From NCBI RefSeq assembly GCF_022846255.1, contig NZ_AP025682.1: a DNA stretch of 64,000 nucleotides, one strand, 5' to 3'. Made by a program: the position numbers. This DNA is from Escherichia coli. Lineage in GTDB: Bacteria > Pseudomonadota > Gammaproteobacteria > Enterobacterales > Enterobacteriaceae. Shown here one piece after another: positions 27,301 to 33,300 of this stretch. Each line of letters starts with the position of its first letter. Position 1 is the first letter of the stretch.

Positions 27301-30300
27301 CAAAACTGTCCTTACGGCGTTCAGCAAACACGGCAAGAACGCCGGGAATATCCTGCACTTCACGACCGGTATACGCTTCAGCGCTGCCGTGCCAGCGGTA
27401 CTTACCGGTACAGAACGGAAAAAGACGGGATGCAGGATGCTGTTGGTGAATACGCATGGCTTCACCACGGGTGATAATTTTCATGATGGGATACCTCTGA
27501 AGACAGAAGATAAAAGTGAAAACAAGTGTGATGTAGTTGTGACGGGTTAAAGCAGACCGTGTTCCGCAAAGGAGAAAACCTGGTTGCCACCGACTATCAG
27601 ATGGTCCGGCACCCGGATATCCACCAGGGCCAGTGCCTGTACCAGACGTTCGGTGATAAGCCGGTCTGCCTTACTGGGTGTGACTTCACCGGACGGGTGA
27701 TTGTGTGCCAGCACCACGGCAGCGGCATTGTGATACAGGGCGCGTTTAATCACTTCCCGGGGATGGACTTCCGTGCGGTTGATGGTGCCGGTGAAGAGGG
27801 TTTCACCGGCAATCAGCTGATTCTGGTTGTTCAGATACAGCACCCGGAATTCTTCACGCTCCAGTCCCGCCATGTTCAGAATCAGCCATTCCCGTGCCGC
27901 ACGGGTGGAGGTGAAGGGCACGCCGGGTTCATGAAGATGGCGGTCCAGGGTTTTCAGGGCCCGCAGAATGAGGCTGCGCTCGCCGGGCGTCATCTCTCCT
28001 GGCAGAAAGGAAAGTTGTTGCATTGTGCTTCTCTCCATTCAGTCGATGATGCGCATAATGGCGCTGCATTCCGGATGCTGCAGGGCGTAATCCCGCAGCC
28101 GGTAATAATGGACCGTCATGGCATAACACTCTGTACGACAGGCATGATGACTGTACGTCATCAGACAGGCAGCAATGCCGGCGGCTTCCGGGCTCATTTC
28201 AGCGCGGTTACCGTTCATGACATTGAACAGTACCCATGTTTCGTCATCATCGTCATCCGGTTCGGGTACCATAAATGCCCCGCCGTTGTTCAGGGTGTAC
28301 AGATTCCAGATACCACCGCAGTAGTCTTCGCACAGACGGTCCATCCAGCCGAAGACACGGGGCTCCAGGGTCACCCACTGTGGAATGAGGCCAAAATGCT
28401 GCGGCCAGAAGCTGATGCGCTGTTCATCAGGGACGAGGCTGGCAACCAACTGAGGCGGATTATTCTCTGGTGTTGTAGCTGAATAAATTGTGGGGGTATT
28501 CTGAGAAACGGTTTTCATGAGATAACTCCTTAAATAACAAATAAATGTGTGTTTTTCAGGAACGAAAGCTGAATGATTCCCTCACTCAGGGAAACGGCAT
28601 CAGCGCAGGCTCTCCAGCATCGTTTCTGCCATCACCCACAATGCGCGATTGAGCTTAATGTCGGTATCAATGCTGTGAATGGCCCGGGTATGGATACGTT
28701 TTCCTCTGGCACTGCGACCGGAAATCCCGCCTTTCAGCATATTCTCCTGGATGGTCTGATATGCGCTCCACAGGTCCTTACCGTAATCCTCCCGGCGTCG
28801 CGGCGTCAGAATGTCGGCGGTGGTGACGGGCTGATGTTCGTCACCATAACGGTAAGTCAGTGCCGCCTGTGCCAGCGCCTGGCGTGCCGGTGGCGGCAGG
28901 ACCAGCGACTGCATGGCATCACGCTTCTCCTCTATCCGGTCAAACACGCCCACCACCTCGTAAGCCCCTTCGATAACTTTCTCCACTACATTTCCCCGGT
29001 GTGGAACACGCACTTCCCCCAGAGACTGGCCACAGACGCACCCGTTCTGGCAGACGAACCTGAAGTAACCCGGCAGCATCTGGTAGCTGGAGGTACCGTC
29101 ATGAGAGTTGAGCAGAATAATTTCAGGGACATGTTCTCCGTTTATCTCTCCGGCCCGCCGCAGACGCAGCATGTGTTTTGTGTATCCCCGGCGGCCCGGG
29201 TCGCGCACACGGGTCTGGCAGGCGAAGAACGGCTGAAAGCCTTCCCGCTGCAGATTTTCCAGGACGGTAATGGTGGGAATGTACGCATACCGTTCACTGC
29301 GGGAGATGTGCCGGTCTTCCCCAAAAATACTGGGTACATGGCGTATCAGTTCTTCATGTGTCAGCGGACGGTCACGGCGTATCTGGTTTGCAGCATAACC
29401 AAAACGACTGGCTAATCGCATACTTTGCTCCTTATCGGTGGTTAAGATTTACTGGTGCAATAAATGAAAAAAGCCGCGTCTCCCGGAGAAGACGCGGCCT
29501 GACGGGTGAAATGAATAAGGTTTATTGTCTGAGAGGCCTTTCACTGGCGAGCCACGCATTAAGCGGCTTTCCGGTAACAATGGCTGGGGCTGTATTTACC
29601 TTTGATATTAATAATGTGCAGAGAAACGCATGGTTTACTCCTTAGATTTTAAGTTTGTCCTGGGCTACAACGACAGGTTTTCCGGATGTGTCGATGACTC
29701 CTACCGTCGGTACGCCATTTTTGATTTCGAAGAACGGTTTGTTGCTACCTGAGCACAGTTGATTGTCCCCGTATTCAATCATTTGTGCTTTCCCGGTTTT
29801 CAGGTTAACTACCGAGACAGTGTAGTCGTAGCACCAGGCACCACCACGCTCAAGCACGAAAACATAGCTGTTATCTTTATAGTTGAACTGATTCTTTGTC
29901 TGGCAATTCATACCGTCAATTTCGGTACAGGAAAACGCTTCTGTAGTATTAACGTATTTGATGTTATTTGGCAGTTTTACTTGTTTCGCAGTAGCGAAGA
30001 CAGAGAACAGAATAGTTACAGCAACGAGTAAAGTTTTGATAAAAGTTTTCATGATAGACTCCTTAAATTAGTTAACCGCAGCTACGTAGTTTTTCACCAG
30101 ATACGCGAATTCATGCACGCCAATTTCACCGAACCAAACCAGGTAGGCCGGGTCATCTAAACCAAAGTAACGGTAGCCAACAACTTCATGGGTTTTTGGG
30201 TTATAGAGTGTTACGATAAAGTCCCAGCCGCAGGTATTGGCTTTGCAACCGTCGCCCTGGAACCAGACTGTACCGTTAATGTTTACTGGCGTGATACCTC

Positions 30301-33300
30301 CACCAGGGCCATCCATATAGCCGCCTTTACCGAACATGCCGCTCAGTCCGACCGGTTTTAATGCTTTGTCGATAGCGGCTTTGTAGGTAGCGTCACCTTC
30401 GTACAACTCGTACGTTGATGGACACGCTCCAGGTTGTTCAGCCCAGGCTTCCGGGTTACAACTAAGAGCTTGTTTTACGGTAGCCGCTTCTGCGTTAAAG
30501 TTAAAGCCCGTGAACAGAACCGCCAGAAATAACATAAGGGTATGTAAACGTTTCATTGTAAATATTCTTCCGTTGTAAATGGCGCTGGAAAATTTCTCAT
30601 CAGTGAAACCTTCCGGAAGTTTCCCCCCCTTGTATGATGTATATCGCCAGTATTTTATTTCATCCCGGCTGTAATTTTTATATTCCCCGGCACGTGCAAT
30701 AACGCTGACCAGAGATATAAGGCTCATTAATAACTTTACAGGTAATTTCATAATTAAATTTCCAGTGAGTGAATTGACAGGTGAGGGGTAAAACTTTCTC
30801 TCAGGTAATATATATCTGAAAATATTTTCAATAACACCAGACAGGAAAAACACCACCACAGGCGGTGGCGTTTCTTTGGGGCGTCTTTATTTAATCCGGG
30901 CCATCGCGTTTCTCAGTGCCAAATCTGCCTCTTCCGTTATATCCAGGCTTTTCTGCAATACCGCCTCTGACCGGGTCAGTGCCTGACGTGCTGCCAGCGG
31001 TTTCCGGATATGCTCCATCGCCAGCATCGTGTCTTCATAGCCCTGCTGACGCCAGGCGTCGGTATGTGCCGATGTAAAACTGAGCAGACCGCCGCTGTTG
31101 CCACCATCACCTGCATATTTCAGCCTTTTCCGGGGACGGATCTCAAGGATTGTGGTGTCCGGAAAAGCCTGGCGATCCCATAAAGAACCGTCACTCAGAT
31201 GCGTCACAATCACCATATTGCATCCGGCATCGACCAGAGGCGTCACAGGGGTATTTCCCTGCATATTTCGCCATCCTCCCATACCACCATCACCGAACAT
31301 TGTCCCCTGAACCTCACGGGGACGGAACAGCAGGGGCAGCGCGGCTGACGCAAGCAGAGCCTCTTTCTGCTGTCCGCGGGGCAGGCTCTGGATATGCTGA
31401 AAAACGGCGTTTTTCGTGGTTCCGACACCCAGTTCAGCACGAATGCAGTCAATAATATCCTGCATGCCCCCTTCTGTGGGGTACAGCGACACATACAGCG
31501 GTAGCCCGTCTGCCAGAGCATCAGTATCAAGATAATGATCCATCAGCGCTGTCAGGGGCTCATCTGACAACAACGGCTGAGCCATCAGATTGTCAAACCC
31601 GTTGATTGTCGATATATGGCGAAGAAGCGTCGTAAGCAGTGCTCCTGCACGTCCGGGGATCTGGCAGAGGTTCATTGCCTGGAACAATTTTTTCAGCAAT
31701 GAAAAGTAAACCAATCTGTTTACCGACAGCACCTGATTATTCCCCAGATGATCCCAGAGCGCCTCCAGGCGTACGGCAGCTTCTGACAGATCGGTAGAGG
31801 CCGCGATAATGGCACCATTGAATGCGCCAATGCTGGCCCCTGAAACCATGCTGATCTGTGTACCACACTCTGCCAGTGCCTTAACCACTCCCGCCTGATA
31901 AGCGCCCACCGCCCCGCCACCGGACAGCACCAGCCCCGTTTTCATTTCTGTACTCATGCAGCCCCCTTCTGAAATATTTCATCGACCATACTTTCAGAGA
32001 GGCGTTCTGCAGAGCAGAGGCGAGGCATGCGAACCGGTAAGTGTTCTGCAGCCTGCGTGGTTGACCAGATCACCGGATGCTGCTCTTCACTGCACCAGTC
32101 TCCCAGCCAGTTAATCGCGTCATGCCACTCGTTATCTGCCTGCTCCCGGCCCTGACCACCAAGCCAGTCCAGAGTGTTCAGACGCACGGTTGCACTACCG
32201 CCACTCTCCTGTGCCATCTGCGTTAATGCTTTATGTCTGAGAATATCCAGTAGCTGGTTAACCTGGCCTGTTTCGCTCTGACGTATCACATCACCAAACG
32301 CGCCCCAGCGAAGCTCTTCAAGTGCCACATAACAACGTCCGGCAGGGGAAAATGACGCATATCGCCCGGCGCTCCACCATGAGAATATCTGCTCAAGATG
32401 TAACTGCGCCCGCTGAACCTGGTCAACACGGTGGAGTTTTTCTTCAAGATGATTCAGTTTATGGTGAACCTGATCGGCCAGGGTGAGTAACTGCTCCCGC
32501 GTATCTGCGGAATAATGCGCCAGCCTGGCTGTATCACTGACCAGTGAACTGACCCTGTCGTTTACCCGGGTAATCGCGTAGTTTGTGGTGGCAAGTGACG
32601 TTGTCATCTCCGTCAGCCAGCGCAGGGACGCCTCAACGCCCTGTGCAAGCGACGCATTGATGGCATTCTGCCGTGCAGCGCCTTCGCCGGTCAGCCCCTC
32701 TTTTAAACGCCGGAAGAACGTGCGCTCTCCGGCCGTGCGGATATGCTCCTGTGCAACATCGATTCCGTTTGCGAAATCAACCACAAATTTTTCAGGAAGA
32801 CAGGTGAGTACCTGACATACCCGGTTATCAGCAATTTGTTGAATAAATGGTGAAGTCACAGCATTGTCTCCAGCTCTTCCCTCAGCGCCTTACTGTCAGT
32901 AATGAGCTCAGGAACCCTTTCATTTAATGCCTGAAGTCGCCCGGTAAGCCGTTCCTGCGCCTGCTGATCGCGTTTATGATCTTCAGAGCTCTGAATCAGC
33001 GTGTTACGCAGTTGTTCAACTTTCTCCCTGAATGCGCAGAAAAAGGCATCGATTTCCTGGCGGACGGGCTGGTTAATATCCTGCTCAATGGATGCCTGCA
33101 GCTCCCCGAAATATGCCCGGGTCAGTGACATAACTTCCTCTCTGACCTTGTTGATATTGATCACGCTGCGACTCACATCCTCGTCATAGTTTTCCCAGCC
33201 CAGGTCACTGGTGCCAAACCATCGACAAACGGTTCCCCATACGCCACTCTGCCGACGGCGACGGGTGACGGTCTCCGTTCTTTCCTCCATAAGCGCACTC

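Follow-up and report, generated by a model that had tools for sequence, protein, structure and literature searches.

Within the 64,000-nucleotide window of Escherichia coli DNA analyzed here (the whole stretch from contig NZ_AP025682.1 of assembly GCF_022846255.1, to which all positions refer unless stated otherwise), a short minus-strand block of genes for secreted proteins lies in a chromosomal CP4-44-type E. coli island. The block, written D'-B-A-C' in the order of transcription, consists of two genes, A and B, preceded by the remnant of a gene D and followed by the stub of a gene C (Table 1). Transitive homology and a predicted fold place the product of gene B in the Ivy (inhibitor of vertebrate lysozyme) superfamily as a far-diverged member. 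The reading favored here, held tentatively and at slightly less than an even chance, is that the block is a decayed cassette of a jumbo phage and that B is a periplasmic inhibitor of peptidoglycan glycosidases, with the virion enzymes of incoming phages as its likeliest targets.

According to this model, a cassette E-B-A-C from jumbo phages related to SPN3US would have been captured in a variable cargo slot of the island. Mature B, a periplasmic Ivy-fold protein with two disulfides, would bind the active-site cleft of a lysozyme or lytic transglycosylase through its CKANTC loop and thereby block cleavage. The likeliest targets would be wall-cutting virion enzymes of infecting phages, such as the lytic-transglycosylase domain of T7 gp16; the benefit to the phage would be superinfection exclusion, and that to the island-bearing cell partial phage resistance. 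A would be a co-transcribed, independently conserved periplasmic beta-protein.

Homology and predicted fold of gene B

Direct searches with A and B against Pfam, NCBIfam, PADLOC and PDB sequences returned nothing usable. Specifically, B has no Pfam match even at E ≤ 10 and no NCBIfam family at E ≤ 0.1, the Ivy models included, and the weak matches in these searches, to DUF6520, to the JUQZ bacteriocin model (15 bits against a cut-off of 40) and to an enoyl-CoA hydratase were taken as chance. A profile of B alleles run against 1.8 billion representatives retrieved relatives of the Ivy family at E values of 3e-20 to 1e-10, with loops reading CEAHNC or CKPHAC, and the Pfam Ivy model PF08816 is matched by 19 of the 27 sequences in the alignment of B with its relatives. 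Compared with the PDB, the joint profile of B and these remote homologues reaches the Ivy structures 1GPQ/1XS0 at E 1.6e-10 and 1UUZ/4PS6 at E 1.8e-7, with the CxxxxC loops of B and Ivy in register. A beta-mannanase that came first (E 0.009) when the profile of B alleles only was used against the PDB was judged a chance match, being local and without support from the fold.

The AlphaFold2 model of B has a mean predicted local distance difference test score (pLDDT) of 93.8 and a predicted template modeling score (pTM) of 0.87. In a Foldseek comparison with the PDB, the top eight matches to this model are all Ivy chains (probability 1.00, TM 0.57-0.73), and every match ranked below them has an E value above 0.5. 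Outside Escherichia, the nearest relatives belong to Salmonella and bear the NCBI names "Ivy family c-type lysozyme inhibitor" or "Prophage protein". B is a mobile paralogue with a changed inhibitory loop and not the housekeeping ivy.

An earlier sequence-only reading of this DNA had found no recognizable family for either open reading frame, a view that has to be given up, as B is a diverged Ivy protein by transitive profile search and fold, and A belongs to the phage family phrog_8968. The structure prediction that it had proposed as a check, by AlphaFold and Foldseek, gave a confident model of B and only Ivy among the top PDB matches. It had also held that homology to a well-characterized housekeeping periplasmic protein would speak against its view; such homology exists formally, with Ivy, but in a protein that is not the housekeeping ivy itself. 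Among the roles it had suggested, that of an enzyme inhibitor appears, from homology and model, to be the right class for B.

Several Ivy-family relatives of B (P0088, P0089 and P0123, from Salmonella and others, 282-316 aa) carry an extra C-terminal domain of about 150 aa. This domain is conserved and contains cysteines, shows the motifs LWQACGG...C, AVxNRRS and YDxGTCS, and received no Pfam assignment in the scan.

The disulfide loop

Ivy blocks c-type lysozyme via its loop. The CKPHDC sequence of this loop is reported to be essential for lysozyme inhibition and strictly conserved in 30 Ivy members (PMC4262234). In the model of B, the corresponding loop, C80-x4-C85, sits in the turn linking strands 72-80 and 88-95, and both loop cysteines are conserved in at least 90% of the family. 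B is predicted to keep a six-residue, disulfide-closed loop at the lysozyme-contacting hairpin. The CKPHDC motif with its active-site His is itself absent from B: the window gene reads CKANTC, and other B alleles read CKSNAC, CKSDAC, CKANAC or CKAHAC.

Across nine B alleles, the position of the Ivy active-site His (window 30236-30238) is occupied by N, D or H, and the C-K and C-G-W flanking the variable loop residues are invariant. This variation could reflect changing target specificity, nine alleles being too few for a test.

Probable jumbo-phage origin of the cassette

Intact versions of the cassette occur in phage sequences. On L006, a 64-kb metagenomic scaffold, two YfjT genes are followed by E (131 aa), B (161 aa), A (136 aa) and C (129 aa), then by genes of 158 and 202 aa and a gene resembling those for structural maintenance of chromosomes (SMC) proteins. 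Three IMG/VR contigs (L017-L019, 220-225 kb) have the same E-B-A-C array with a single YfjT-type gene. The array is collinear with gp086 through gp080 of SPN3US, which has orthologues of E, A and C at 28-50% identity and an unrelated gene in place of B; gp085 was rejected as a B orthologue on inspection of its cysteine pattern, which is of the A/C and not of the Ivy type. B had no tblastn match in 50,697 deposited phage genomes, its phage copies being on metagenomic and IMG/VR contigs, and phage-type B alleles are also found on contigs of about 224 kb in Salmonella and E. coli assemblies. Judged by inspection of these arrays, B is an addition in E. coli-type jumbo phages relative to SPN3US.

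Composition agrees with this origin, with a GC content of 0.39-0.49 for the cassette and 0.435 for the phage contig, against 0.52-0.57 in the island flanks. The phage arrays are intact and the island copies fragmentary. Specifically, the window and a second island locus, L003, share one truncation point in C and then differ by later deletions, which removed the 3' part of D and gene E in the window and A in L003; B is kept in every examined island variant that derives from the cassette. A single phage-to-island capture followed by decay is the most parsimonious account of these alignments, and the copy in the island most likely came from a phage and is in decay.

Two further observations concern the neighbors of B. 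Between D and B, L003 (5650-6000) holds a degraded copy of the phage gene E (phrog_9424), in which stretches such as PKVISGSIHPLAVGNYTAVDFFHSAELIGRITLNRSAE are recognizable and no frame is intact, and there the C' stub lies directly 3' of B. The YfjT-family genes (PF27224, phrog_3429) open the phage cassette (4598-5551 of L006, 4034-4495 of both L017 and L018); YfjT, an uncharacterized signal-peptide protein of the K-12 CP4-57 prophage, is a second link of CP4-type island cargo to jumbo phages.

Coding status and the chimeric start of gene B

The longest frame of gene B (30068-30859) would encode 263 aa from a GTG and stays open for 303 bp upstream of the MKRLH start (30556 to 30859). The GTG at 30859 falls within the patatin terminator hairpin (30867-30851). 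The NCBI Prokaryotic Genome Annotation Pipeline (PGAP) places the start at the ATG at 30751, the sole sensible one upstream of MKRLH, giving 227 aa, and many homologues of 160-161 aa begin at MKRLH. The 63 residues in front of MKRLH are 49% identical (E 4e-18) to the N-terminus of an intact gene D in L003. This D' segment comprises a signal peptide, MKLPVKLLMSLISLVSVIARA, and 42 further residues, and its parent gene encodes a secreted protein of 180 aa. Islands L002-L005 show the order patatin, a separate 180-aa secreted D, a degraded gene and a B of 160 aa. DNA alignment shows that a deletion of about 708 bp removed the remainder of D and the next pseudogene and joined codon 63 of D in frame to B. 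The 5' extension of B is thus a deletion scar, and the annotated 227-aa gene a deletion-made chimera. Neither the 263-aa nor the 227-aa frame was retained as the ancestral gene: MKRLH is the start in alleles from phages and other islands, and the extension has its homologue in a separate gene. The deletion also took away the ancestral AAGGA ribosome-binding site of B, and a GGAAG now stands 10 nt from the ATG.

Both A and B are real protein-coding genes, because the ratio of nonsynonymous to synonymous substitution rates (dN/dS) is 0.12-0.18 for each against diverged island and phage alleles; both are under purifying selection. The signal peptide of B (lysine/arginine n-region, hydrophobic core, cleavage motif AEA|A) is kept in all alleles, B is predicted to be exported to the periplasm by Sec, and the mature protein has four family-conserved cysteines. 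The 11-residue Kyte-Doolittle maxima of the two signal peptides are 2.87 and 2.51.

Much of what the sequence-only reading described at this locus stands: two open reading frames between the DUF932 and patatin genes (gene A and the frame 30068-30859), both on the minus strand; a Sec signal peptide on each (lysine/arginine n-region, hydrophobic core, AxA site); and at least four cysteines per protein, with four in both mature proteins. Its suggestion of separate acquisition is borne out by the presence of the same cassette in jumbo phages and a composition unlike that of the flanks. The AT-rich composition on which it drew applies to A (GC 0.414) and the upstream extension (0.390) but not to B, whose 0.487 equals the window mean of 0.485 for practical purposes; the flanking DUF932, patatin, RdcB-like and dynamin-like genes range from 0.52 to 0.57. 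It was right that the frame is open for about 300 bp and that the start is ambiguous, although the GTG at its far end lies inside the terminator. Two features had escaped it, namely that the upstream frame is the remnant of a third secreted-protein gene and that the stub of a fourth gene follows A.

Table 1. Features of the D'-B-A-C' block and its neighbors, in minus-strand order
Feature	Position	Strand	Description
YeeP-like GTPase		-	First in order, before the dynamin-like gene
Dynamin-like CrfC/RdcA paralogue	32856-35252	-	
RdcB-family protein	31954-32859	-	
Patatin-like phospholipase	30887-31957	-	
Intrinsic terminator	30851-30867	-	Hairpin and T-run directly after the patatin stop
D'	30557-30751	-	First 63 codons of gene D and 2 junction codons; 5' part of the PGAP model
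Gene B	30068-30556	-	162 aa from MKRLH; 24-aa Sec signal peptide (30485-30556) and 138-aa predicted Ivy-fold domain
CKANTC loop codons of B	30230-30247	-	Aligned to the inhibitory CKPHDC loop of Ivy
Gene A	29642-30052	-	136 aa; 22-aa signal peptide and 114-aa all-beta domain with 4 Cys
C' stub	29608-29631	-	AGGAG, then ATG CGT TTC TCT GCA CAT TAT TAA (MRFSAHY, stop)
Strong intrinsic terminator	29471-29500	-	13-bp stem with 8 G-C pairs, T-run; before the DUF932 gene
DUF932 gene	28600-29421	-	3' of genes B and A
Antirestriction, RadC/YeeS, YeeT, CbeA/CbtA		-	Beyond DUF932

Gene A and its paralogue C

Gene A has a strong ribosome-binding site (AAGGAG, 7 nt upstream) and a signal peptide with a lysine/arginine n-region, a hydrophobic core and the cleavage motif ATA|K; with four family-conserved cysteines in the mature protein, A looks, like B, to be exported and disulfide-bonded. 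Its match to phrog_8968, a family of phage proteins whose function is unknown, spans the full length (E 2.6e-45; residues 1-131 against profile positions 1-133 of 135). By tblastn, A has matches in 41 jumbo-phage genomes, with 34% identity to SPN3US gp084, and the relatives found in profile searches are limited to Escherichia, Salmonella, Serratia and Erwinia jumbo phages and to SPN3US-like jumbo phages of Salmonella and E. coli. None of these relatives carries a Pfam domain, and A has no sequence or fold similarity to the lysozyme inhibitors MliC/PliC, PliG and PliI. A is a distant paralogue of its neighbor C (hhalign probability 92.8%, E 4e-7), which also matches phrog_8968 weakly. Intact C in phages is a secreted-protein gene of 129 aa; the C' stub, aligned at the DNA level to phage L017 and island L003, is its truncated, frameshifted 5' end.

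The same island slot, between the GTPase and DUF905/DUF932 genes, holds A-family genes without B in Salmonella and E. coli, so A and B are not obligate partners. We would guess that A, too, binds or inhibits a protein of the envelope or of phage entry.

Function of gene B and competing explanations

The proposed function draws on published precedents and one recorded phenotype. Ivy proteins inhibit lytic transglycosylases in addition to c-type lysozyme, weakly so in E. coli (PMC10139938); the T7 virion protein gp16 degrades peptidoglycan (PMC6116005); and T4 Spackle is a phage-encoded periplasmic inhibitor of a virion lysozyme (PMC7650644). In E. coli O121, CRISPR interference (CRISPRi) knockdown of hypo_04657, described as an Ivy-like protein with a CKANTC loop and an extra helical segment, raises the plating efficiency of T7 (preprint 10.1101/2024.04.20.590424). 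Among the alleles sampled, this description fits the fused 227/225-aa form of B alone, and hypo_04657 is very probably gene B, matched by loop and two-part architecture and not by sequence comparison. As Ivy-type inhibitors are known to act on glycosidases and the T7 amidase gp3.5 is cytoplasmic until lysis, gp16 seems the better target candidate. The inhibitory activity of B and the identity of its target are, in all of this, what we infer.

Several points weigh against this account. Neither the Pfam nor the NCBIfam Ivy model recognizes B directly, a profile built from nothing but B alleles reaches the PDB Ivy entries only at E 1.4, and membership in the superfamily is argued by way of intermediate sequences and a predicted structure. 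Asn and Thr stand in B where CKPHDC has its central His and Asp, so that activity on c-type lysozyme may be lost. The ancestral ribosome-binding site of B has been replaced by GGAAG, and a start at 30751 would make the second signal peptide internal and leave the topology uncertain. On the phage side, SPN3US itself lacks B, as do all the deposited phage genomes searched, and A occurs in the island slot without B. As to the phenotype, hypo_04657 was identified with B by loop and architecture, CRISPRi knockdown would silence the downstream gene A too, and the preprint authors proposed the T7 amidase gp3.5 and not gp16 as the target (10.1101/2024.04.20.590424).

Four other explanations compete for the same data. 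B could serve in the classical role of Ivy, protecting against animal c-type or other lysozymes at a breached outer membrane, as an accessory for host colonization or virulence that the island carries. The Ivy fold, the conserved disulfide loop and the NCBI names of its nearest non-Escherichia relatives would all suit this role, the hosts of E. coli are rich in lysozyme, and Ivy and MliC are reported to aid lysozyme tolerance (PMC2267010). Yet the loop His and Asp are replaced, a chromosomal ivy is already in the cell, resistance to animal lysozyme offers nothing to the lytic jumbo phage in whose cassette B is found, and the sole recorded phenotype concerns phage plating, which together make this role quite unlikely.

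Alternatively, B might restrain the lytic transglycosylases of the host itself, stabilizing the wall against premature lysis or lysis from without during phage infection and acting as a stress buffer in the island. Ivyp1 and Ivyp2 are reported to inhibit MltB of Pseudomonas aeruginosa, partial inhibition of MltA and MltB by E. coli Ivy has been observed in vitro (PMC10139938), and the long cycle of a jumbo phage would gain from a stable sacculus. Against this, Ivy was a weak inhibitor with no in vivo effect in the same study, and restraint of host enzymes does not by itself account for the rise in T7 plating on knockdown; we regard this explanation as distinctly improbable.

The block could also be inert, decaying phage debris whose proteins are poorly expressed or absent and now serve no function in the island. 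Deletion scars on both sides (the D' fusion and the C' stub, with the E pseudogene in L003), the lost ribosome-binding site of B and the lack of a convincing sigma-70 promoter on the minus strand 5' of the unit are what such debris would look like. The low dN/dS between island and phage alleles, the retention of B in all island variants seen despite the loss of its neighbors, the presence of at least 80% of the segment in 1882 complete genomes and the knockdown phenotype on record argue otherwise and render this explanation very unlikely. Highly improbable, finally, is that B, perhaps together with A, serves as an orphan immunity protein against muramidase toxins brought in from competing bacteria, such as type VI effectors or pesticin-like bacteriocins: small periplasmic disulfide proteins in a variable slot with other small envelope proteins (YfjS/YafY, YfjT), one of them with an inhibitor fold directed at glycosidases, would fit, but no toxin, VgrG/PAAR, Rhs or bacteriocin gene is adjacent in any context examined, and the conserved context is a lytic phage genome.

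The favored reading, an exported glycosidase inhibitor of phage origin directed at incoming virions, can be extended into a broader picture that we consider unlikely. E-B-A-C together with the YfjT-type genes would form a "periplasmic armour" of jumbo phages, each small, disulfide-bonded protein neutralizing a different envelope-breaching enzyme or entry step of rival phages; CP4-type islands of E. coli and Salmonella would repeatedly have captured pieces of it as a periplasmic defense at the stage of wall penetration and DNA injection, ahead of the cytoplasm. The variation of the B loop (N, D or H in place of the Ivy His) would keep pace with phage lysins in an arms race, and A would be the first member of a new inhibitor fold.

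Island context

The region is 100% identical in many complete E. coli genomes, and at least 80% of the segment 29422-30886 is carried by 1882 of 5426 such genomes. Because terminators flank the block on both sides, D'-B-A-C' forms a transcription unit of its own. A functional tie to the upstream dynamin/RdcB/patatin operon was rejected, as a terminator intervenes and A and B are found elsewhere without those genes.

That upstream unit (30887-35252, minus strand) is of interest in itself. Its genes for a dynamin-like GTPase, an RdcB/YjcZ-family protein and a patatin have overlapping stop and start codons and their own terminator. The GTPase scores 556 bits to the CrfC/RdcA model against a cut-off of 1146, with a weak LeoBC match, and the patatin has weak matches to models of CBASS (cyclic-oligonucleotide-based anti-phage signaling systems) and anti-phage phospholipases; the unit looks like an undescribed candidate defense module. 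The other side of the island is standard CP4-44 backbone (26819-28518, and L001 16155-16528: antirestriction, RadC/YeeS, YeeT and the CbeA antitoxin), and the annotation of the identical SMS-3-5 locus marks the cbtA toxin gene as frameshifted. In a Salmonella island (L010, 3224-4727), the cargo slot between the YeeP-like GTPase and DUF905/DUF932 genes holds an A-family gene beside a YfjS/YafY lipoprotein, a 150-aa protein and a GYF_2-domain protein. This slot seems to collect small envelope proteins.

Significance

Work on Ivy has so far treated it as protection from animal lysozyme or as a restraint on autolysins. The occurrence of a diverged Ivy protein in lytic jumbo phages and in about one in three complete E. 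coli genomes, together with the effect reported on T7 plating, would point to a third use, namely the blocking of wall-cutting enzymes that phages need for DNA injection. If so, it would constitute a periplasmic layer of defense that acts before phage DNA enters the cytoplasm, most known defense systems being intracellular, and a common "hypothetical protein", WP_000775500, would gain a testable function. Four uncharacterized phage families (phrog_8968, 5248, 9424 and 3429) are moreover tied to one exported cassette. The Ivy-like protein with its CKANTC loop and the effect on T7 are already in the preprint (10.1101/2024.04.20.590424); new here are the evidence that the cassette comes from jumbo phages, the recognition of the 227-aa gene as a chimera and the finding that A and C are paralogues.

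Comparison with known systems

Among proteins of known structure, B is closest to Ivy (YkfE) of E. coli and Ivyp1 of P. aeruginosa (1GPQ, 1XS0, 1UUZ, 4PS6), whose fold of a helix, a five-stranded sheet and a helix it is predicted to share (TM 0.65-0.73). B is predicted to be periplasmic, as Ivy is, and has a mature domain of about 130 aa and, at the same position, a six-residue C-K hairpin loop that is predicted to be disulfide-closed as in Ivy. B differs in its low identity (18-21%), in the exchange of the active-site His for Asn and of the Asp for Thr, in an extra N-terminal cysteine pair (C9, C21) and in being encoded on a mobile island and in jumbo phages, whereas Ivy is a core gene. The nearest relatives beyond the Escherichia and phage alleles, the Salmonella P0088 proteins (e.g. 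WP_240776469, 314 aa; E 3e-20, 32% identity), have both cysteine pairs in common with B and are likewise labeled as prophage-borne. Their loops read CEANNC or CEAHNC, and many continue into the extra C-terminal domain of about 150 aa, which has no counterpart in B. The preprint on hypo_04657 treats the helical or transmembrane part as a domain, whereas the present analysis finds two signal peptides joined by deletion, and it gives no phage origin or neighbor analysis.

For A, the known counterparts are SPN3US gp084 and its family phrog_8968, 136-aa signal-peptide proteins with the same four cysteines and the GGxxC.D motif. SPN3US gp084 occupies the same position in the gene order, upstream of the SMC-like gene. 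Identity is 28-34%, and the place that B takes in E. coli-type phages is filled in SPN3US by an unrelated gene of 163 aa. MliC/PliC, PliG and PliI, small beta-rich periplasmic or lipoprotein lysozyme inhibitors, would be plausible functional analogues of A.

The closest functional parallel to B would be T4 Spackle (gp61.3). No Spackle entry is among the Foldseek PDB or PDB sequence matches of B; Spackle has a different, novel fold and blocks substrate access rather than entering the active site. The resemblance would be functional only. Spackle is a small, phage-encoded periplasmic protein with a signal peptide that inhibits the virion lysozyme gp5 and so excludes superinfecting phage (PMC7650644), and as such it provides the working model for B.

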